The translations under genes and the position numbers were made by a program. The notes under the pieces are model-generated. The model was not told where the DNA came from. It did not search any database and was given only the letters and a program-made list of their open reading frames with translations. Shown here piece by piece: positions 2,200 to 55,789 of a DNA stretch of 64,000 nt. This DNA comes from Ginglymostoma cirratum (taxonomy: Eukaryota): contig JAHRHZ010000040.1 of assembly GCA_024137785.1 (NCBI GenBank), positions 6,765,545 to 6,829,544 of the forward strand, in the 5' to 3' direction. Positions within the stretch are counted from its first letter, which is position 1, and each line of letters begins with the position of its first letter.

Positions 2200-2616
2200 G
2201 TTCATCGCATTATGGGTGAGAGGGGGAAAGCATACATGGATGTAAACATGGAATCTGATGAAAGTAACTTAAGTGAGCTGAAAGGATTGGAGAATGCATT
2301 TGCTGTTCCTAAAGTTGACCAGTGTGATGAGACACAAGAGGATTTGACCAAACCTCCTTCAGACATCTTTGTTGACCGAGTTAATACTGATGTGAATGAC
2401 AGTGAACCAGTAAATGCTGACTTGGATGATCCATATGCAGCTAAAATTCATATCAATGGCATAGACCAAAGATGTCATACTCAGGACAGTGTTGAAGTAG
2501 ACGACAATATTCTGGAGAAAACTTATGACTTGTGTCAGACTAATTCTGAGCCTGTGAAACAAATCTGTGCAGATAATTGGGGTTATGACAAACCTCAAGT
2601 ACTGTTTGCACTTTAA
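2200..2616 (+). CDS. IFNGR1: Interferon gamma receptor 1, last (cytoplasmic) exon
   Basis: TTTCTAG acceptor ends at 2199, in frame with the previous exon. VHRIMGERG...DNWGYDKPQVLFAL* matches the IFNGR1 STAT1 docking motif GYDKPH-VL. Confidence 0.9.
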   Translation, partial: VHRIMGERGKAYMDVNMESDESNLSELKGLENAFAVPKVDQCDETQEDLTKPPSDIFVDRVNTDVNDSEPVNADLDDPYAAKIHINGIDQRCHTQDSVEVDDNILEKTYDLCQTNSEPVKQICADNWGYDKPQVLFAL

Positions 2617-7385: not shown

Positions 7386-7785
7386 NNNNNNNNNNNNNNN
7401 NNNNNNNNNNNNNNNNNNNNNNNNNNNNNNNNNNNNNNNNNNNNNNNNNNNNNNNNNNNNNNNNNNNNNNNNNNNNNNNNNNNNNNNNNNNNNNNNNNNN
7501 NNNNNNNNNNNNNNNNNNNNNNNNNNNNNNNNNNNNNNNNNNNNNNNNNNNNNNNNNNNNNNNNNNNNNNNNNNNNNNNNNNNNNNNNNNNNNNNNNNNN
7601 NNNNNNNNNNNNNNNNNNNNNNNNNNNNNNNNNNNNNNNNNNNNNNNNNNNNNNNNNNNNNNNNNNNNNNNNNNNNNNNNNNNNNNNNNNNNNNNNNNNN
7701 NNNNNNNNNNNNNNNNNNNNNNNNNNNNNNNNNNNNNNNNNNNNNNNNNNNNNNNNNNNNNNNNNNNNNNNNNNNNNNNNNNNNN
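7386..7785. other. Assembly gap (400 N), probably spurious
   Basis: The flanks overlap by 29 identical nt (7357-7385 = 7786-7814). Confidence 0.9.
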
Positions 7786-19235: not shown

Positions 19236-20950
19236 GTAAGAAAGCTAGCACTTTACCTGAATGCTTGTAGCATTCTTAACAAGATTGATGAGTTAACAGC
19301 AAAAATCATTGCGAATGAATATGATTTGGTAGCCATTACGGAGACGTGGTTATGGGATGGTCACGACTTGGAGTTAAATATCCAGGGGTACCAGACTATT
19401 AGGAAGGACAGACAGGAAGGTAAGGGAGGTGGTGTAGCTCCAATATTCAAGGACGACATCAGGGTGGTGCTGAGAGATGATATAGGTTCTCTGAGGTTGA
19501 ATCCATTTGGGTGGAAATTAGAAATTCGAAAAGGAAAAAGTCACTGATAGGCGTAGTCTATAGGCCACCAAATAATAACATCACATTGGGGCGGGCAATA
19601 AACAAAGAAATAACTAATGCCTGTAAAAATGGTACGGCAATTATCATGGGGGATTTTAATCTAAATGTAGATTGGTCGAACCAGCTTGGTCAGGGTAGCC
19701 TTGAGGAGGAGATAACAAGATGTGGAGCCGGATGAACACAGCAGGCCAAGCAGCATCATAGGAGCAGGAAAGCTTGACGTTTTGGGCCTAGACCCTTCAT
19801 GCTTGACAAATCTTTTGGAATTCTGCGAAGACATTACGAGCAAGGTAGGCAATGGGGACCCAGTGGATGTGGTGTACCTAGATTTCCAAAAGGCCTTCAA
19901 CAAGGTGCCACGCAAGAGGCTGCTGCATAAGATAAGGATGCATGGCGTTAGGGGTAAAGTATTAGCATGGATAGGGGATTGGTTGACTAATAGGAAGCAA
20001 AGAGTGAGGATAAATGAATGCTATTCTGGCTGGCAATCAGTGACTAGTGGTGTGCCTCAGGGATCAGTGTTGGGATCACAATTATTTACAATTTATACAG
20101 ATGATTTGGAGTTGGGCACCACGTGTAGGGTGTCAAAGTTTGCAGATGACACTAAGATGAGTGGCAGAGCAAAGTGTGCAGAGGACTGTGAAACTTTGCA
20201 GAGGAACATAGATACATTGAGTGAGTGGGCAAAGGTCTGGCAGATGGAATACAATGTAAATAAATGTGAAGTCATACATTTTGGTAGGAGTAATAGTAAA
20301 AAGGATTATTACTTGAACGGTAAAAAGTTGCAGCATGCTGCTATGCAGAGGGATCTGGGTGTCCTTGTGCATGAATCACAGAAGGTTGGTCTGCAGGTAC
20401 AACAAGTAATTAGGAAGGCAAATGGAATTTTGTCCTTCGTTGCTAAAGGGATTGAGTTTAAAAGCAGAGAGGTTATGTTGCAGCTGTACAAGGTGCTGGT
20501 GAGGCCACACCTGGAGTACTGTGTGCAGTTTTGGTCTTATTTGAGAAAGGATGTACTGGCACTGGAGGGGGTGCAGAGGAGGTTCACTAAGTTGATTCCA
20601 GAGTTGAGGGGGTTGGCTTATGAGGAGAGACTGAGTAGATTGGGATTATATTCATTGGAATTCAGAAGATTGAGGGGGGATCTTATGGAAGCATATAAAA
20701 TTATGAAGGGAATGGATAAGATAGAAGTAGAGAGGATGTTTCCACTGGCAGGTGAAGCTAGGACAAGAGGGCATAGCCTCAAGATTAGAGGGAGCAGATT
20801 TAGGACTGAATTGAGAAGGAACTTCTTCACCCAGAGGGTTGTTAATCTATGGAATTCCTTGCCCGGTGAAGTAGTTGACGCTACTTCAGTAAATGTTTTT
20901 AAAGTTAAGGTAGATTTTTTTTGAACAATAAAGGAATTAAGGGATACGGT
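19236..20950 (+). pseudogene. CR1 ORF2 (APE endonuclease + RT), frameshifted and internally deleted
   Basis: YLNACS, ITETWL, VYRPP and GDFN, then CLTNLLEF, YLDFQKAF, PQGSVLG and FADDTK. Confidence 0.92.
19710..19800 (-). mobile_element. Penelope pLTR fragment at the deletion junction in CR1 ORF2
   Basis: GATAACAAG...GACCCTTCAT lies between CR1 LEEE and CLTNLL, with no TSD. Confidence 0.85.
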
Positions 20951-27927: not shown

Positions 27928-30515
27928 GAGATAAAAGGTACTGCAGATGCTGGAGAATCCAAGATAACAAGGCGTGGGGCTGGATGAACACAGCAGGCCA
28001 AGCAGCATCATAGGAGCAGGAAAACTTGACGTTTCAGGCCTAGACCCTTCATCAGAAATGGGGGAGGGGAAGAGGGTTCTGAAACAAATATGGAGAGAGG
28101 GAGAGGCGGATAGAGGATGGATAGAGGAGGGGATAGGTGGAGAGGAGGCAGACAAGTCGAAGAGGCGGGGATGGAGCCAGTAAAGGTGAGTGTAGGTGGG
28201 GGGGTAGGGAGGAGATAGGTCAGTCCAGGGAGGACGGACAGGTCAAGGGGGTGGGATGATGTTAGTAGATAGGAGATAGGGGTGGGGCTTGAGGTGGGAG
28301 GAGGGGAAAGGTGAGAGGAAAAACAGGTTAGGGAGGTGGAGTTGAGCTGGACTGGTTTTGGGATGCGGTTGGGGGAGGGGAGATTTTGAAGCTTGTGAAA
28401 TCCACATTGATGCCATTGGGCTGCAGGGTTCCCAGGCTGAATATGATTTGCTGTTCCTGCAGCCTTCGGGTGGCATCACTGTGGCATTGCGGGAGGCCCA
28501 GGATGGACATGTCGTCTGAGGAATGGGAGGGGGAGTTGAAATGGTTCGCGACTGGGAGGTGCAGTTGTTTGTTGCGAACTGAGTGCAGGTGTTCTGCAAA
28601 GCGGTCCCCAAGCCTCCGCTTGGTTTCCCCGATGTAGAGGAAGCCACAATGGGTACAGCGGATGCAGTATACCACATTGGCAGATGTGCAGGTGAACATC
28701 TGCCTGATGTGGAAAGTCTTCTTGGAGCCTGGGATTGGGGTGAGGGAGGAGGTGTGGGGGCAGGTGTAGCACTTCCTGCGGTTACAGGGAAAAGTGCCGG
28801 GTGTGGTGGGGCTGGAGGGGAGTGTGGAGCGGACAAGGGAGTCGCAGAGGGAGTGGTCTCTCCGGAAGGCAGATAAGGGTGGGGAGGGAAAAATGTCTTT
28901 GGTGGTGGGGTCTGATTGCAGATGGCGGAAGTGTCGGAGGATGATGCGTTTGATCCGGAGGTTGGTGGGGTGGTACGTGAGGACGAGGGGGATTCTTTTT
29001 TGGTTATTATTGTGGGGACGTGGCGTGAGAGATGTGTTACGGGAAATGCGGGAGACACGGTCGAGGGCGTTCTCGACCACTGTGGGGGGAAGTTGCGGTC
29101 CTTGAAGAATGAGGACATCTGAGATGTACGGGAGTGGAATGTCTCATCCTGGGAGCAGATGCGGCGGAGGCGAAGGAATTGGGAATAGGGGATGGCATTT
29201 TTGCAGGAAGGTGGGTGGGAGGAGGTGTATTCCAGGTAGCTGTGGGAGTCAGTGGACTTGAAATGGACATCGGTTTCTAGGTGGTTACCCGAGATGGAGA
29301 CAGAGAGGTCCAGAAAAGAGAGAGAAGTGTTGGAGATGGTCCAGGTGAACTTCAGGTTGGGGTGGAAGGTGTTGGTGAAGTGGATGAACTGTTCGAGCTC
29401 CTCGTGGAAGCACGAGGCGGCGCCGATGCAGTCATCAATGTAACAGAGGAAGAGGTGGGGTTTAGGGCCACTGTAGGTATGGAAGAGGGATTGTTCCACG
29501 TAGCCTACAAAGAGGCAGGCATAGCTTGGGCCCATGCGGGTACCCATGGCCACCCCCTTTGTCTGTAAGAAGAGGAGGAATTGAAAGAGAAGTTGTTGAG
29601 GGTGAGGACGAGTTCGGCTAAGCGGATGAGGGTGTCGGTGGAGGGGGATTGGTCAGTTCTGCGGGACAGGAAGAAGCGGAGGGCCTTTAGGCCATCTGCA
29701 TGGGGAATACAGGTGTATAGGGACTGGACATCCATAGTCAAAATGAGGTGTTGGGGACCGGGGAATTGGAAGTTCTGGAGGAGATGGAGGGCGTGGGTGG
29801 TGTCACGGACGTAGGTAGGGAGTTCCTGGACCAAGGGGGTGAAAATGGAGTCTAGGTAGGTGGAGATGAGTTCAGTGGGGCAGGAGCAGGCGACCAGGGC
29901 ATTCAGGTTTGTGGATTTTGGGAAGGAGATAGAAGCGGGCGGTGCAGGGTTGGGGAACGATGAGGTTGGAGGCGGTGGGTGGGAGGTCACCTGAGGTGAT
30001 GAGGTTGTGGATGGTTTGGGAGATGATGGTTTGGTGCTCGGGGGTGGGGTCATGATCCAGGGGGCGGTAGGAGGAGGTGTCAGAGAGTTGGCGCCTGGCC
30101 TCAGCAATGTCGAGGTCAGTGTGCCATACTACGACTGCCCCTCCCTTGTCTGTGGGTTTTATGGTGAGGTTGGGATTGGAGCAGAGGGAGTGGAGGGCTG
30201 CACGTTCTGCGGTGGAGAGGTTGGAGTGTTTAAGAGGGGTAGAGAGGTTGAGGCGATTGATGTCTCGACGGCAGTTGGAGATGAAGAGGTCGAGGGAGGG
30301 TAGGAGGCCTTGGGGTGGTGTCCTCTTCGACTTGTCTGCCTCCTCTCCACCTATCCCCTCCTCTATCCGCCTCCCCCTCTCTCCCTATTTATTTCAGAAC
30401 CCTCTTCCCCTCCCCCATTTCTGATGAAGGGTCTAGGCCCGAAACGTCAAGTTTTCCTGCTCCTATGATGCTGCTTGCCCTGCTGTGTTCATCCAGCCCC
30501 ACGCCTTGTTATCTC
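27928..30515 (-). mobile_element. Penelope-like retroelement (Neptune-type), 5'-truncated with an inverted pLTR
   Basis: RT motifs DKGGAVVV, TMDVQSLYT, AMGTRMGPSYA and YIDD; Cys-rich linker CNRRKCYTC; GIY-YIG NVVYCIRC...YIGETKR..RFAEH; several frameshifts. Inverted 3'-end copy at about 30322-30515. TSD TGTCTGCAATGGAG at 27917-27930 and 30518-30531. Confidence 0.95.
30417..30452 (+). ncRNA. Minimal type I hammerhead ribozyme motif in the inverted pLTR
   Basis: ATTT-CTGATGA-A-GGGT(CTAG)GCCC-GAAA-C-GTC-AAGT. ATTT/AAGT form helix I; predicted cleavage is after 30448. Confidence 0.82.
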
Positions 30516-31122: not shown

Positions 31123-31240
31123 AAAGTATTGCACACCCACTGCAAGTGAATTTCAACTCTACCGACTTCTACAATGTTTTACAACGGCAGGAAGCCAATC
31201 ATCCCAGTAGGAGTATTGTTCACATGGTACAATACAAAAT
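31123..31240 (+). pseudogene. Locus A exon 2 (FNIII D1, first half)
   Basis: ESIAHPLQVNFNSTDFYNVLQRQEANHPSRSIVHMVQYKM with AG/GTAAGT boundaries. The conserved L-x-W Trp is Arg (CGG). Confidence 0.88.
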
Positions 31241-33124: not shown

Positions 33125-33303
33125 GTATGGGGAGAAACAGTGGAATAATAAAACAGAATGCTGGAGAATAAGTCAGCCATTCTGTGACCTTACTCAAGAG
33201 ACAAGGCACTTTATGGAGCCATACTTTGCAAGAGTTCAAGCCCTTACAGCAAATGGCCACTCAAACTGGGTACATAGTGAAAGGTTTATTCCCTTCTGGG
33301 AAA
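33125..33303 (+). pseudogene. Locus A exon 3 (FNIII D1, second half)
   Basis: YGEKQWNNKTECWRISQPFCDLTQETRHFMEPYFARVQALTANGHSNWVHSERFIPFWE. The donor reads GGAAGT instead of GTAAGT. Confidence 0.92.
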
Positions 33304-33809
33304 GGAAGTATGTATGCATTACTGTGTCTTGAATTTTCCACTGAATGAAAAACGGTGAGTAAATGGCCTTCCTTCTCTGAATCCAACTTGTGATTTTGTA
33401 AAACAGGCAATGATCATGTGCAATCTGGAAAACTCCTGTCAAGGTAGTAAAGAAAAATGTAATAGGAAGTACCCAAAAGGATTCAGAAGGTAAAGCTTTG
33501 TGTTTGTCAGTCTCCTAGTACCCCAGTTAGACTGTAGAAATTCTTAACACTGATTGTACTATCTGTAATATTGGAGAAGTGTGTTTTTAATAAAGATTGT
33601 GGAAATTTTTCTTTGAGCCTTAAAAAGGAGTTGATCACGAATTGACATTATAGAGATAGATTAAGCAGCAAACTGTATGGTAAATTATGTACAGAAGACT
33701 TATAGGAATAACCGGATGTGTTTGACAAAGTTGTCTGCATCCAGCATCTCAATTCATTTTGGACCAGCTTCTTTGGCATCAACTAATATTCCATGGTAGA
33801 GACAGTAGA

Positions 33810-35501: not shown

Positions 35502-35674
35502 CAGCCATTAGTCCGCCAAAGATTAAACTCACACCCCAGTCAGGATCTATACAGGTGGAATTGTTTGCTCTGTGAACACCTTTCAGAAGGAAAAATGGCT
35601 CCTGGATTACCTTGGATAAAATTTATATCGACTTGGAATACCAAGTAGAAATTACAGGAAATCCAGTGGATCAT
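35502..35674 (+). pseudogene. Locus A exon 4 (FNIII D2, first half)
   Basis: TAISPPKIKLTPQSGSIQVELFAL*TPFRRKNGSWITLDKIYIDLEYQVEITGNPVDH, with TGA at 35573-35575. 173 nt, the same length as locus B exon 4. Confidence 0.9.
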
Positions 35675-39920: not shown

Positions 39921-40070
39921 AGACCTGAATCACGCAGAACAACAAGTACAACAATATCTATCCACAATCTAAAACTCAGAACAACTTACTGCATGCATGC
40001 TCGAATACAGATACCTTTATTCATTAAATCAGTAAATATGGTAGAGAAAAATGTGCAACAACATTTGATG
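39921..40070 (+). pseudogene. Locus A exon 5 (FNIII D2, second half)
   Basis: RPESRRTTSTTISIHNLKLRTTYCMHARIQIPLFIKS. Adding 1 nt near 40031 gives xKYGREKCATTFD+g and a phase-1 GTAAGG donor. Confidence 0.85.
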
Positions 40071-40334
40071 GTAAGGCAAAGTGACCTGAGTAGAACTACT
40101 TGTTCTGTATTCTTTCATGGGATGTGGGTGTCACTGGCAAGGCCAGCATTTGTTGCCCATCCCTAATTGCCCTGGAGCTTAGTGGCTTTCTAACTAGTTA
40201 AGAGCCAACCACATATCTAGTGGGTCAGGAACCATACATAGGCCAGACCAGGTAGGAATGGCAGATTGCCTTCCCTTGAGCTGTTTAGTGAACCAAATGG
40301 GTTTTCAAAGTAAATGATAGTAGTTGTTATCGAC

Positions 40335-49217: not shown

Positions 49218-49284
49218 ATGGCAGTACAAGTGTCCCACATCTTTTTGTGGTTCTTACAAATGTTGATTCTATTCAATGGCACAG
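49218..49284 (+). CDS. Locus B class II cytokine receptor exon 1 (signal peptide)
   Basis: MAVQVSHIFLWFLQMLILFNGT+g; good Kozak context (AGGATGG); GTAGGT donor, phase 1. Confidence 0.75.
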
Positions 49285-50369
49285 GTAGGTAAATAATCCA
49301 TTGTGATATTTTTAAAATGCCTGAGCCGATGATAGATAAACTAAAAAAAATTCTGATTCCATTGGCTTTATCTCCAAAGATTTTTCTGCATGAAATATTG
49401 TTCCACTTCTGACAACATTTTTTTGACTTTTCTCCTGCATTTTAACTTCAGTTCTCTCCTTCCCTTATTGGATCAGATTAAAAAATATCAGCAAGTATGT
49501 GTGCAGATATACTATATTAGTGAAACTATTAATCTCAATATCAAAGATAATAATTTCTTCTTTTCAGATACATTGGCCAAAATAAACCCAAATTAAAGTC
49601 AAAAGATGATTACTTCCAAAGTTTTAAAACTGTTGCTATCTTAAGATTTTGGGGATTCTCTGATAATGAAACTGTCCACACAACATGTAAGGTTATGAAT
49701 AACTTGATGGAAATTTTATTTTGACAAACTCATAAATTCTAGATTGGGTGTGAGCATATTATTGAATGGTAACATTTACAATTTACTATAAATTTGGAGT
49801 TGAGTATTTAGTATATTATTATTTCAAAAATTGATGGAGATTGCTTGAACATCTTTCTCATCTTATTTCATTTAATATCAGTCTAAACGGAGATGTTTGG
49901 GTAGCCTAAGCACCCATTCTCGCCAGCAGGATATCATTGTAGCTTACCAGTTGGTCAGTCACAGAATTCTAATTTATTCTGATGCTAAGACAAAAGGTGG
50001 GCAGAAAGGTTGGAGGAAGGGCAAAATCATGTGGCAACATGGAGGGACTGGACTGGGGTATGTTGGTGAGGTTAATTTGGCAGTGAACTACGAATTCCTG
50101 AGAAACAGAGGGGAGTACACCTTCCCTTTGAAGGCAGCCCCACAAAAGCAGAATAAAAGGGAACTTTTTTTTATATATGACTATCAGCTCCTTCAGAATT
50201 ATAATCAGGGTACTATGTATACTGTTGGCCACCAATCACCATTTTAAAAGCTTCTGCCACTGCACATTCCCCTCCAAGCCACACACCAAACTGACTTAGA
50301 ACTATCTTACCTTTTCCTCACTATCACTGGATCAAAATCCTGCGGCTCCCTTCCGAACAGCACTGTGAG

Positions 50370-50502
50370 TGGCCATATCATTCACACCCACAAGTTGTTC
50401 AGCTGCCCAGAAACCAAATGCATAGCTATTGGCAGGTGAAGACCTCTGTCATCGCCAAATGGTCACCAGTCCACAGACTGATCGGTGTGAATGATATGGC
50501 CA
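50370..50502. mobile_element. 133-bp MITE-like element with perfect 19-bp terminal inverted repeats
   Basis: TGGCCATATCATTCACACC (50370-50388) and GGTGTGAATGATATGGCCA (50484-50502). Confidence 0.7.
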
Positions 50503-51729
50503 GAAGCATTCAAACCTCCGTGAAGGTGAGGCAATGTATGCCCCTCTTGGTAAAATTATCTAAAGCCTGAAAGAACCAATTTATTTTCCCTCACTAATTT
50601 CTGTAAGCTTCATAATTCTGACACTTCATAATTTATAAACCATTCATTCTGTGCCTTATGTGAGGTAGCAAAAGTACCTGAAGAGAAATTGAAGATCCAC
50701 ATGTCTTGGAAAGCAAAAAGGATTATCTCAGTGAATCTTGTGGACAGAGGCCATAACCCATAATACCCTCAACCCATAATACCATATTTTGTCCATTTGT
50801 ATATGAGTAGAGAAAGTTTTAAAATGGGGCTAGAGTTTTAATTAGCAGAGTAATATTTCAACAGTTCATAGTTGTTGACCTGTAGCTAGAACATGTTTAT
50901 TTGTGATAAATTGTCATTCTTGTTAAGTATAGAAATATAGTTCACGCTTGCTGTTACCCTGGGTATAAAAATATTAGTAAATTTGGAAACCTGGTGTACT
51001 TCAATCATTTCTTTAACATTTATGATAGCTGTGGGAATAGTGAGGCTTGATTTCCAGTGTACTCCCTGGAGAGGCATAACAGATGCTTAATATTATCTTC
51101 ACTAGTATAGTGGTGTATCAGCAAATAAAGACATAAATATTGTACTATATATGTAGATATATGTTTTAAAAGAGTACAATAAAAACATTAAAGGCGTCAG
51201 GAGGTATGGAGAGAGAATGAAAGTACAGCATTGAAATAAGGGATGGGCCATGATCATGTTAAATGGTGGGGGTGTCTTGATGTGCTGAATGGCTTATTTT
51301 CCATGTTTCTATGCTTGCCTGTACACTATTTATGAAAGACACTGAATGCATCACCTCTGCACAGATGGCATTTTGACTGCAATTACATTGGCATGAATTA
51401 CAAAGTTCTTTTTTTAATATCCCTGTTATTTATTTATTTATCTTTTGTAGTATTTTCAAAATAGTTACACTCACGCTGATATATAAACAAACAGGTGCAT
51501 GCTGCAATTAATAAGTCCAAGTACTAACCTCTAGGCAACATTGAATGAAATGAAATCTGTTTTTCCCTTTAAAACAATGTAAGTCTATATTTTGATGTAT
51601 TTGTCTTGGTCAATATCCATCTCTCACCCACCACCATTGACCATGTGAGAGATGAGTATTGAAATTTACATTGTATGGTCCTTGATGCTGATCCAAATAG
51701 ACACTGTAAACTCTCTCCCTTCATTTCAG

Positions 51730-51853
51730 CTATGAAAGAACCAAAAATGCCACAGGATGTGAAATTCATTTCCCAGAATTTCCAAAATGTACTTCACTGG
51801 AAAACAAAAAATGAAACAGAAAACTTCACTACATACTTTGTGCAACATCGATT
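51730..51853 (+). CDS. Locus B exon 2 (FNIII D1a)
   Basis: AMKEPKMPQDVKFISQNFQNVLHWKTKNETENFTTYFVQHRL; canonical splice sites, phase 1 to 2. Confidence 0.92.
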
Positions 51854-51981
51854 GTATGTATTTTAACAAGATTATCCAAATTTTGTAGCAAAAGAAATGA
51901 TTTCTGTTTCAATCATTTGTAAAATAGTTATAGCAGTATTAACGAAGAATGAAAAATAAATGCTAAATTCCTTTATTACAG

Positions 51982-52157
51982 ATATGGAAAACCCTGGTCA
52001 AACACAACAGATTGTTGGGGCATCAAGGAAACTTCCTGCGACCTCACACAAGAGACAAGTCCATTTTTTGAAAAATTTTTTGCAAGAGTGAGAGCTTATT
52101 CATTTAATGAAATCTCAAATTGGACAGAAAGTGAGGCATTTTGTCCAATGACAGATA
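51982..52157 (+). CDS. Locus B exon 3 (FNIII D1b)
   Basis: YGKPWSNTTDCWGIKETSCDLTQETSPFFEKFFARVRAYSFNEISNWTESEAFCPMTD; phase 2 to 1. Confidence 0.93.
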
Positions 52158-52879
52158 GTAAGCATGTTTCTCACTAACACTGAATACAATTTAACATTTT
52201 ATCTCAATGCTGTTTCTTGGTGCAATGGACTATTAAATATGACCAGAGAGTCTTAGTGTTCAGAATTCTTTGTTTTATTATTCAACTCAATACATGTGTT
52301 CCGTCCAAACTTCCTCTTCTGCCTTCTGTCACAACAGTATTCAGGTCAGTAGGGGGAGAGCTTTCTGTCAGGATTCACTTCACTGTCAGAAGGTATCTTC
52401 CATTTCCCAATGTTACTTTTGAGCATTATGTTATTAATAAATATTGATGATGTTGTGTACTTCACTAAGATTTAAAAAAACATTTTACCAAACTTGATTA
52501 AAAACAGGAGGATAATTTTCAACTCTATCTAGGCAGTAATGGACCATATTGATTACCATTGTTAACATGGTCTCTTGTGTTGCATAGCCGATTGCAGCTA
52601 ATGTCCATCAAACCCAATTGCCTTCAAGCTAAGCTCCAATGTACAATGTTGAACAGACTCCAAAACAGTGGGAAGAAATAGAATCTTTGGCTTATAATTT
52701 GGTGTCATATAACAGAGCGGGTGCCAGTTTATTAAAATCTACATCTGTACCGCGAGTGTATTTTCATCCTCAATAAAATCAAGTGTTAATTGGAAGTAAT
52801 ATTTAAATTGAAGTTTGTGGTACTAACACTGGCAGCACAAAGCTATGTTATGACAATGCCATCATTATTTTTGACACAG

Positions 52880-53052
52880 CTCTCATTGGCCCTCAAGAGA
52901 TAGAGGTGATTTCCTTTGAAACATCAATCCTTGTTAAGGTGATTGCTCCCTGCACAATGCTAAAAGAGCAGAATGGCAGCCTGAAGTCGGTGGAAGATAT
53001 ATATCACAAAGTGAAATATGATATAAAGGTGTCAGTCAAAGCATGGAGTCAG
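52880..53052 (+). CDS. Locus B exon 4 (FNIII D2a)
   Basis: TLIGPQEIEVISFETSILVKVIAPCTMLKEQNGSLKSVEDIYHKVKYDIKVSVKAWSQ; phase 1 to 0. Confidence 0.92.
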
Positions 53053-53141
53053 GTAAGCATCCTTGCCTTTTTTCATTTTTTATTCCATTTATTGAATCTA
53101 TAATGAGATGATTATTCATTAATTGTTCATCTAACCCCCAG

Positions 53142-53288
53142 ATACGTTTGGAAAATCTGAGAACTTATATTACTAACAACAAAACTTTTGAGATCCATCA
53201 CTTAAGTCCTGGAACAACCTACTGTATTTCTGTTCAAACAACGGTTCCATTATACAGTAAGATTGGTAAACCAAGTAAAGAAGTGTGA
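53142..53288 (+). CDS. Locus B exon 5 (FNIII D2b), ending at a premature TGA
   Basis: IRLENLRTYITNNKTFEIHHLSPGTTYCISVQTTVPLYSKIGKPSKEV*. A GTGAGT donor is still present at 53300. Confidence 0.9.
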   Translation: MRLENLRTYITNNKTFEIHHLSPGTTYCISVQTTVPLYSKIGKPSKEV

Positions 53289-53398
53289 GACACTGACCAG
53301 TGAGTCGTACAGTTTGTTTAACTCTTTCAATACAGGTATTTCAGTAATATCTAACATGCATTAACTGACTGTTAATTTAACTATGCTTTAATCCACAG

Positions 53399-54073
53399 GG
53401 CCAAAAACTAGAATAATGCACTCAGTGATAACCTGCTCAGCATGTGGGGCACTAATCCTGGTTATACTTTCGACTTATACTTTAAGTACTCTATGCCCCT
53501 AAAACACAATTACCCGCAATGTTGACAAACTGGAATAGAAAAGAACCAGAAATTGCTGTGTTTTTACCTCAAATTATTGAATCAACAAATATTGATAAAT
53601 GGGAACTTACAGAAAACTCAAAATATCCGAGACTTTCACTGTTACAAAATAGAACTGCAGCACATGCACAGCATTGTAAAAAATACATCAACATTGAATC
53701 TCCAGGTAGATTCAGAACCAGAGATTTTGATCAGAGCTTTATGCATCAGGATACCATTATATTTTATCAGTACCTTGAGCAGCCTCGATTTATTTGTTCT
53801 CAAAATGCACAGTTAGACCTAGAATCTGACACCTTGTTCTGCATAGACCAGCAAGAAGAGAACATCAGGTTGCAATGGATGTCAGCAGATTGCTGTCAAT
53901 ATCAATTCTGCTGCCAAAACAAAGAGGAATTCGAAGTTCTGGAAGCAGAATCTTTTCAAAAACCAACAGAGATCTCTGCACCTGGATATCCAGACTATAT
54001 CAATGAGGACTTTTGTGAAGATCCAATTTTGAAGACCTGGGGACTGATCATCCAACAAATAGATATAGTTTGA
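53399..54073 (+). pseudogene. Locus B fused TM + cytoplasmic exon (IL20RA-like tail), frameshifted as assembled
   Basis: CACAG acceptor, then PKTRIMHSVITCSACGALILVILSTYTLSTLCP* (TAA at 53500). The shifted frame reads PKTQLPAML into the 184-aa ORF containing YLEQ and ending WGLIIQQIDIV. Confidence 0.8.
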
Positions 54074-54108
54074 AATTTTTATAAATACAAAGTCTTAACA
54101 TGGCATTA

Positions 54109-54114
54109 AATAAA
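54109..54114 (+). terminator. Candidate polyadenylation signal of locus B (second AATAAA at 54232)
   Basis: AATAAA ~35 nt after the tail ORF stop, in AT-rich sequence. Confidence 0.4.
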
Positions 54115-55789
54115 AGACATTTTACCTGAACCAGAATATGCTCTGTAAATTTGTAGGCCTTAAAGTTGAAATATTTTAATTATTTCTATAATATTATAAG
54201 AAACTTCAAGGTCAAAAAGAATCTTTAACCTAATAAAGCTCTATTATCCTGCTGTAATATGTAACTGCATTTTCTATGGTCCTCAATCTTTGCACTCACT
54301 GCAATACTGATATTAACATTCTAAGTTAATGTATTTATCCTATTTATCTACCTCCATTTATATACCTTCATTATATTCTCCCCCAGTTGGTCTCTTTCAA
54401 AGTTATAAATCTTGAGCATTTCTAACTTTATTCTTTGGTAAACCATCTGCTTCACTGGCATTGACTTTATCAATATTTGTTCACTTAATTCAACATATTC
54501 TTTGCTGTCTCAAACCCTCATATCACAACTGAGTATCCAGCCAACTACATGAAATCTTTTACTACATCCTGAAATAAAAAAGTATTTTTCCATGTAGCAG
54601 CCTGCACAGGGCACTACGCGATATTGTGGAACCAAAAATGATCTTTCAAGAGGGGAAAAGAAAGAAAGACTTTTTTTTATCATAAATAAAAGCAAAATCC
54701 TGTGGATGCTGGAAATCTGAAATGAAAATAACGGTTAATATCCAACATGTCTGGCAGCATTTGTGAAGTGAGAAACAAAACTGATGTTTTGAGTTCAAGA
54801 TGCCTCTTCTTCAGAATTGCATTTAATTAGATCTTTTAACAGACATTGGATGTCCCAAAGTATTTTTGAAACATCATCACTGCTGTGATCAAAGAGACAT
54901 GGCAGTAAATTTGCACTCAGCATACTCCCACTAAGAACACTGTGATAATGATCCGATAATCAATTGTGCGTATGTCAGGGGGTCACTGAGCTCAGTTGAC
55001 TGGTTTGTGATGCAGTGTGATGCTAACAGCAAGGGTTCTTTTATCCCATACCAGCCGAAGTCACTGTGAAGATAGTACCTCATCCCTCACCTGGGCTATG
55101 GTGATTTGCAGGTTAAACCACTGTCAGTTATCTCTCAGTAGTGAGAGAGCAGGCCTATAGCAGCTTCATACTTTAATTGACATATAGGCATTAGCCAAGC
55201 CACCTGGCAACTCCTCAACCCTGATCTCCAATGTAGTGGTGTGAGCTTGTGTACATTGACCTGAGTGAGTGGCCAGGTTCTTGGTTTAAATTTTCATCCA
55301 AAATAAAAACAGCACTTCTGTCAGTGCAGGGCTCACTCAGTACTTCATATGCTGTACTTTATAGTCAAGTCCTGTAGTGGGACTTGGACCTAGAAGTAAG
55401 TGTGTTAACAATTATGTCATACACTGACAACCAATTCTCCCCAGCGGCAAAAATCGTCACAAATTTGAAGCCTATTACCAACACATCAGACCTAATGGGA
55501 TTCCTCTGCTTTCACTCGTATCAGGACTGCACTGGCTGTTCCTACCCCATCATTTGTTTTGAAAAGGCAAATTTCACTCCTTTCCACCCGTGGCAACATG
55601 CTGATAGCAACTTGTGAAATGCAAATGTGCAAACGCCTAATGTTGGATAGCAGGTCCTTCAACATCTAAAATGAGATGGGTTTAAAATTTCAAGTCTAGA
55701 GTTTATATTCAGTTCTTATATTGTAGCTAAAAGCATGTTTCTCTTCCCAATAAATGCCGAGTGATTTCTGACGTTTCCAGCATTTGCAT

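Follow-up and report, generated by a model that had tools for sequence, protein, structure and literature searches.

A class II cytokine receptor gene at 49218..54126 (+ strand), here called gene B, was analysed in a 64,000-nt stretch of Ginglymostoma cirratum DNA (assembly GCA_024137785.1, contig JAHRHZ010000040.1, positions 6,765,545 to 6,829,544 of the forward strand; hereafter the window). Gene B is probably a young transcribed pseudogene, and its 228-amino acid (aa) product is predicted to be non-functional. Its reading frame is broken by three frameshifts, which are real and not artefacts of assembly, and the allele that bears them is at least common, with fixation resting on four samples. 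By sequence comparison, gene B is a distinct paralogue located between IL22RA2 (gene A, encoding IL-22BP) and IL20RA (gene C), and is neither of them.

Structure of gene B and its three frameshifts

Exons 1–5 of gene B, all on the + strand, are bounded by AG and GT throughout, and their phases read from the sequence are 1-2-1-0. Exon 1 (49218..49284; phase 1) contains the ATG and the signal peptide and ends at a GT donor; 19 of the first 23 residues are identical to those of Chiloscyllium plagiosum at the unspliced level, and nearly all are identical to those of the whale shark model. The first fibronectin type III (FNIII) domain, D1, is encoded by exons 2 (51730..51853; phase 2) and 3 (51982..52157; phase 1; PF01108, E 1.9e-10), the latter of which carries Cys75 and Cys83. 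The second domain, D2, is divided between exons 4 (52880..53052; phase 0; placed by splice sites and transcript joints) and 5 (53142..53299). The spliced open reading frame (ORF) specifies 228 aa ending in KPSKEV, followed by a TGA at 53286–53288 that lies 11 nt from the donor at 53300, as the original prediction, made from the sequence alone, had described. This ORF contains no transmembrane (TM) segment.

Exon 6 (53399..54126, +), which is now 3′ untranslated region, carries the TM segment, a box1-like motif, and the tail in a single exon, with ATTAAA at 54105; the 3′ ends of transcript contigs lie at 54126 (run X1) and 54161 (run X3). The stalk and TM remnant (PKTRI...VILS; 53401..53472) shares 79% identity with residues 233–260 of the C. 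plagiosum protein, and the vestigial tail, which is open over 193 codons (53492..54073), shares 74% identity with the same protein. A motif scan found LPAML at 53510–53524 and YIN..EDP..WGL at the C-terminus of the tail. The TM segment, LPAML motif, and 184-codon tail that had been predicted are all present, the count of 184 applying to the ORF that starts at ATG 53519. The TM segment and the tail are in different frames, and the TM frame stays hydrophobic until its stop at 53498, ending ...TLSTLCP. The TM segment, box1-like motif, and tyrosine-bearing tail, which are in frame in the orthologues of nine species, are vestigial in gene B, where the three frameshifts have severed them.

Alignment with orthologues placed lesion 1, a loss of 2 nt, at the Gln codon that precedes the last D2 cysteine (53281..53288; about 53281–53283, with the new TGA at 53286–53288). 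Lesions 2 (−4, about 53473–53474) and 3 (−1, about 53490–53491) flank the LYFKY end of the TM segment (53473..53491). The three lesions span about 210 nt, and when an X is placed at each of them, gene B matches the intact orthologues column for column. The residue that precedes the last D2 cysteine is Q in all of the eight full-length orthologues aligned, and the lost codon is therefore a Gln codon; lesion 1 is not a repeat slip, and the earlier proposal that adding TG would restore EVC does not stand. The 2-bp deletion and the early stop inferred at the same time are real, but two more frameshifts (−4 and −1) accompany them.

The stretch 51600–54300 was checked against four of 24 listed runs, namely transcript contigs of three studies (X1, X2, and X3, classed as transcripts by their spliced joints, since none of the 24 is registered as RNA) and raw poly(A) reads of a fourth run (X22), 30 of which were placed, 27 at ≥99% identity. 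The comparison covered runs of one organism; the 24 also include 12 DNA-type runs of a related one (share 0.10–0.24). Neither the contigs nor the 30 reads showed any alternative letter or any gap relative to the window, and individual contigs run across all three lesions with 0 differences. The gap-free contigs from three studies exclude assembly error and indicate that the allele is at least common. Gene B is single-copy in the genome (4.36 Gb, 289 contigs); a search of the rest of the genome for another, intact copy yielded only distant paralogues.

Transcription and splicing of gene B

The four joints of exons 2–6 were found in all four runs, among them 51853→51982 and 53299→53399, the latter using the donor at 53300. 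Expression in X22 is low, at about 1.7 fragments per kb per million. The join between exons 1 and 2 was unseen in the four runs, in which the stretch examined began at 51600 and exon 1 was outside coverage. No loose end was recorded where exon 2 begins, and no contig headed towards exon 1; the contig of X1 has its 5′ end within intron 1, at 51678. With its stop 11 nt from the last junction, the mRNA would be expected to escape nonsense-mediated decay (NMD), as the original prediction had proposed.

In one X2 contig, exon 2 is preceded by 29 letters, 27 of which match 40043–40069, the end of the last exon of gene A. The joint (40070→51730) connects the gene A donor (GT at 40071) to exon 2 of gene B. 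The same contig is circular and contains a second, non-splice joint; it therefore shows that the read-through molecule exists, but not how frequent it is. The join is phase 1 to phase 1, and an unbroken locus would give a membrane receptor with four FNIII domains. Pieces of intron 3 (52410–52880) also occur as contigs in X1 and X2 (depth 6–9). They represent RNA that is unspliced or keeps the intron, or else DNA; if intron 3 were kept, the product would consist of D1 only.

A broken receptor or a secreted decoy

A search with the tail of gene B returned five full-length TM proteins (442–546 aa) among 185 candidates, the best being that of C. plagiosum (74%). Full-length TM orthologues are present in nine cartilaginous fishes (C. 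plagiosum, Heterodontus, Mustelus, Cetorhinus, Heptranchias, Narcine, Hypanus, Leucoraja, and Callorhinchus), bearing out the view that gene B was once a membrane-bound class II receptor and now has an early stop. The intact orthologue (P0001) matches PF01108 (E 2.8e-24) and PF09294 (E 5.8e-14), and its fold resembles those of IL-22R1 and IL-20R1; the ESM Atlas yielded generic class II receptor clusters only. Database names of the orthologues are inconsistent (IL20RA-like, IL22RA2, IFNAR2-like, and uncharacterised). The ancestral gene probably encoded an R1-type signalling chain comprising a signal peptide, D1, D2, a TM segment, a box1-like motif, and a tail with a conserved C-terminal tyrosine motif, and its ligand may have been an IL-10-family cytokine. 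In Narcine, gene B is represented by one TM form (414 aa, with a shortened tail) and two soluble forms (268 and 236 aa; P0006, P0010, and P0011). Proteins P0023 and P0027 comprise a further Narcine model that apparently fuses two tandem receptors, IFNLR1-like and IL22RA1-like as judged by motifs, and a reed-frog protein of the gene B lineage that apparently has an extra N-terminal FNIII domain.

Ectodomain-truncated versions, known as protein models only, were found in whale shark (158 aa), C. punctatum (133 aa), and Amblyraja (166 aa), each with a different cut site. Gene B is identical to the whale shark model at 147 of 158 residues, in keeping with a genome nearest to those of carpet sharks, and the window codes for Ser at the position of the whale shark stop; the last residues of the C. 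punctatum model match the shifted frame of the window. Gene B would seem to have become dispensable in carpet sharks, with its function lost more than once.

In any protein made from gene B, the last D2 strand would be missing and Cys208 would be left without a partner; folding or export of such a protein is predicted to be poor. The product contains Cys75, Cys83, Cys118, Cys147, and Cys208 and lacks Cys229, a residue that is invariant to at least 90% across 34 relatives and presumably pairs with Cys208. In the AlphaFold model of the bamboo shark intact orthologue, which is a model of that protein and not of the 228-aa product, Cys229 lies within the last D2 strand (228–231), and the predicted local distance difference test scores are 94–98 in those blocks. 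IL-22BPs are described as keeping four conserved cysteines, the pair that closes D2 among them (PMC8573258).

In the relative-rate test at the protein level, changes derived in the window and in C. plagiosum number 15 and 16 in the ectodomain (227 sites, 4 unpolarised) and 20 and 26 in the TM segment and tail (223 sites, 5 unpolarised). These counts give no sign that conservation is stronger in the ectodomain than in the tail (Fisher p = 0.82; a test of low power). Relative to whale shark, four of the six window-specific changes (K72T, N90S, F108I, and P128Q) fall at near-invariant columns.

Gene A, the true IL22RA2 of this genome (31123..40072, +), lies 9 kb upstream of gene B and is broken, a point that the original prediction had overlooked. 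Its exons are located at 31123–31240, 33125–33303, 35502–35674, and 39921–40070, and exon 1 was not found. Four lesions were identified in gene A: a W-to-R change at the conserved D1 tryptophan (31185–31187), a GG in place of the exon 3 donor at 33304, a TGA in exon 4 at 35573–35575, and a frameshift in exon 5 at about 40028. By these lesions IL22RA2 is a pseudogene here; the skate orthologues are intact, soluble, and 229 aa long. The IL-22 gene, on the other hand, is intact between MDM1 and IFNG, with five phase-0 exons (L030 6314–7952, −) and a PF14565 match (E 3.4e-5) on exon 3; a whole-genome PF14565 search gave no IL-22 match, and the gene was located via synteny with MDM1. IL-26 was not recognised in the listed part of the ORFs near IL-22, where no test was aimed at IL-26, and a PF00726 search gave one IL-10-family exon. 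An IL22RA1-like gene has open exons (L043–L044; G000:C25:2133275-2142608, −). IL-22 signalling thus appears to operate without IL-22BP in this shark.

Several observations weigh against the pseudogene reading. Apart from the lesion that makes the stop, exons 1–5 contain no disabling lesion. No splice site has been lost, the signal peptide is undamaged, and lesions 2 and 3 are both on the 3′ side of the stop, an arrangement with a probability of 0.25 under random placement. The tail has neither closed nor accumulated excess change; an open tail would make the loss young and the rate test weak. The truncations in whale shark, C. punctatum, and Amblyraja could be errors of those assemblies. A short human isoform, IL-22BPi3, presumably lacks most of D2. 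This isoform is reported to neutralise IL-22, with lower affinity (PMC6302113), and an incomplete D2 alone therefore does not rule out binding.

Among known systems, a signalling chain without its tail can act as a decoy, as described for IFNAR2-S and teleost CRFB15 (PMC13599139). The function of both has been tested, and IFNAR2-S is made in addition to a full-length form of its receptor, whereas every transcript of gene B seen is broken and its D2 is incomplete. Gene B resembles transcribed unitary pseudogenes in being single-copy, with several lesions fixed in four samples, intact orthologues, and an mRNA, but differs from them in that its first stop leaves a decoy-sized ORF and the adjacent IL22RA2 is also lost.

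The principal alternative is that the stop frees the ectodomain as a functional secreted decoy, which would bind an IL-10-family cytokine, possibly IL-22, and replace IL22RA2, with lesions 2 and 3 representing neutral decay. Its mRNA is spliced and stable, its product is of the size of IL-22BP, and the trees place its lineage together with IL22RA2. Soluble splice forms of the gene occur in Narcine, and both later lesions lie beyond the stop. With IL22RA2 broken and IL-22 and the IL22RA1-like gene remaining, there is room for a replacement decoy, and the broken IL22RA2 keeps this explanation alive at low odds, but adjacent decay of two related genes also fits plain relaxation. The D2-closing cysteine, lost in gene B, is retained by complete IL-22BPs and by both soluble forms of Narcine. 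The L4 loop of IL-22BP contacts IL-22. In gene B this loop reads EAFCPMTDT, and its FCPMTDT is not of the PWWET/PFWET type of IL22RA2, whereas gene A keeps ERFIPFWE; our literature search found nothing on IL-22BP contact residues. The ectodomain shows no conservation of its own, close relatives have models cut earlier, and the exon 1–2 join, with exon 1 outside the stretch examined, is unseen. We therefore regard a functional decoy as unlikely, and the selected young decoy of the original prediction is not supported; the recent null allele that it had offered as an alternative is the best fit. A complete hand-over within one cluster, in which IL-22BP was lost, IL-22 and IL-22R1 were kept, and a sister receptor was frameshifted into a secreted replacement, is quite doubtful.

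A stepwise loss, in which lesion 2 came first and left a TM-anchored chain without a tail, perhaps a dominant-negative decoy, before the −2 lesion made the allele null, is improbable. The TM frame is hydrophobic up to its stop at 53498, and membrane decoys in the family (CRFB15 and IFNAR2-S) have been described (PMC13599139); the order of lesions is, however, unreadable from one genome, and no relative with lesion 2 alone was seen. It is slightly harder still to credit a null allele that is segregating beside intact alleles in the species: only four samples are involved, contigs lose rare variants, and the raw X22 depth at the lesions is about 1.5–3, but the three lesions occur in cis, and the assembly and three separate studies agree on them, none listing a variant. 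Three indels within 210 nt do resemble long-read errors, but the letter-identical contigs of three studies across all three sites, and a lesion 1 that is not a repeat slip, leave assembly error with virtually no standing.

Gene B in the receptor cluster and the origin of IL-22BP

The order of genes at the locus, all on the + strand, is IFNGR1-like, gene A, gene B, and gene C. The last exon of the IFNGR1-like gene (2200..2616, +; an ORF ending ...WGYDKPQVL) has no Pfam match, and its YDKP motif is one that we take to be a STAT1 site; class II exons lie about 17 kb before the window. Gene C, which is IL20RA, is intact, lies about 53 kb downstream of gene B, and shares 94% identity with a zebra shark protein. 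The IFNGR1–IL22RA2–IL20RA linkage is known, and the order in the window agrees with it (PMC5332411).

Trees of 51 ectodomains, drawn from the 157 of a first-pass tree, were built under LG+G4 and a mixture model. Gene B falls in a chondrichthyan clade of its own (support 100/97 and 98/97), outside the IL22RA2 and IL20RA clades, whereas gene A lies within the IL22RA2 clade (99/97 and 98/98), alongside the soluble 229-aa skate proteins, and gene C within the IL20RA clade (100/98). TM receptors of caecilian, frogs, bichir, paddlefish, gar, and bowfin form one group with gene B and IL22RA2 (91/89 under LG+G4 and 80/75 under the mixture model). Besides cartilaginous fishes and amphibians, named members of the gene B lineage come from bichirs, paddlefish, gars, bowfin, and one elopomorph teleost. 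The caecilian, shark, and chimaera proteins have in common the YIN..EDP..WGL motif at the C-terminus. With this moderate support, gene B is probably a membrane-bound sister lineage of IL22RA2, and the lineage probably also occurs in amphibians and non-teleost fishes. In approximately unbiased (AU) tests, neither gene B with IL20RA (p = 0.157) nor IL22RA2 with IL20RA (p = 0.191) was rejected, and IL22RA2 with IL22RA1 was rejected only marginally (p = 0.047); the placement of gene B as sister of IL-22BP is thus preferred but unproven. The synteny of the lineage was examined in this genome alone. Identification of gene B as IFN-upsilon R1 (CRFB12), for which the criterion used was a conserved locus of its own with orthologues in zebrafish, birds, and monotremes, is not supported by the species range; the tree contained no named IFN-upsilon R1. 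A search of the literature, mostly outside subscription journals, found no description of gene B as a paralogue and none of the loss of IL-22BP in a shark; the literature consulted also included PMC8863823, PMC10999703, PMC13466502, PMC12652433, PMC8634938, and PMC8226699.

Gene B shares features with both of its neighbours. IL22RA2/IL-22BP (PDB 3g9v) is the best match of the intact gene B orthologue among solved structures by sequence (E 7.6e-32), and both genes belong to the same cluster and encode two FNIII domains, with products of similar length (228 aa predicted for gene B). The gene B orthologues are, however, membrane-bound, and the gene B product is without the fourth cysteine and the PW-x-ET loop. 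IL20RA (IL-20R1, CRFB8; structure 4doh_R, E 4.9e-30 to the intact orthologue) shares with gene B the cluster and strand, the R1-type plan, and a C-terminal WGL-x-[IV] motif, and many gene B orthologues have been named IL20RA-like automatically. IL20RA differs in having an intron after box1, one that gene C and IL22RA1 of this genome both have, whereas gene B has its TM segment and tail in one exon; the tail of gene B is about 190 aa long, and that of IL20RA about 390.

Read in the frame that agrees with skate, the last exon of gene A gives C-A-T-T-F-D and then G/GT, and exon 5 of gene C (L012–L013), which has a working phase-1 donor, reads C-A-T-T-P-K followed by G/GT with identical spacing. 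The gene A GT donor (40052–40072 region of the window) is the one used in the X2 read-through molecule and may be a vestige of membrane-bound ancestry or a later cryptic site. Skate IL22RA2 ends at TTF. Among 16 stored IL22RA2 sequences, 10 end 3–4 residues past the last D2 cysteine and one ends 7 past it, the other five being incomplete or aberrant models. No TM exon was found between gene A and gene B when the + strand was scanned for hydrophobicity. The stop positions of IL-22BPs, the donor spacing, and the tandem position together suggest that IL22RA2 originated by partial duplication, with exons 1–5 copied, D2 whole, and its end at the old exon boundary. IL-22BP itself likely arose by loss of the splice to the membrane exon and not by a frameshift of the gene B type. 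The gene B lesion cuts inside D2 and represents a different route, and the earlier view that it echoes the origin of IL-22BP is not borne out, given IL-22BPs that stop 3–4 residues after the D2 cysteine at an old exon end. On balance, we lean slightly towards a scheme in which sharks, amphibians, and non-teleost fishes keep a hitherto unrecognised, membrane-bound sister of IL-22BP, and IL22RA2 arose by partial tandem duplication of the first five exons of that receptor.

Elsewhere in the window, ORFs of ordinary retroelements resembling reverse transcriptase were recognised by eye at 19716–20924 and 28243–29652 (−), and a gap of 400 Ns (7386–7785) interrupts a short repeat of a common kind.

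There is nothing unusual in a broken receptor gene, but gene B marks a fourth receptor in the IFNGR1–IL22RA2–IL20RA cluster. With IL-22 and IL-22R1 retained beside a dead IL-22BP, this shark would be a naturally occurring knockout for a decoy whose conservation extends from skates to mammals, and, if the truncated product did serve as a replacement, this locus would give a rare view of a decoy in the course of being made anew. If gene B is indeed the sister of IL-22BP, the origin of IL-22BP would become testable, and an orphan cytokine–receptor pair would be implied in early jawed vertebrates, one that would be open to study in frogs, gar, or skate.

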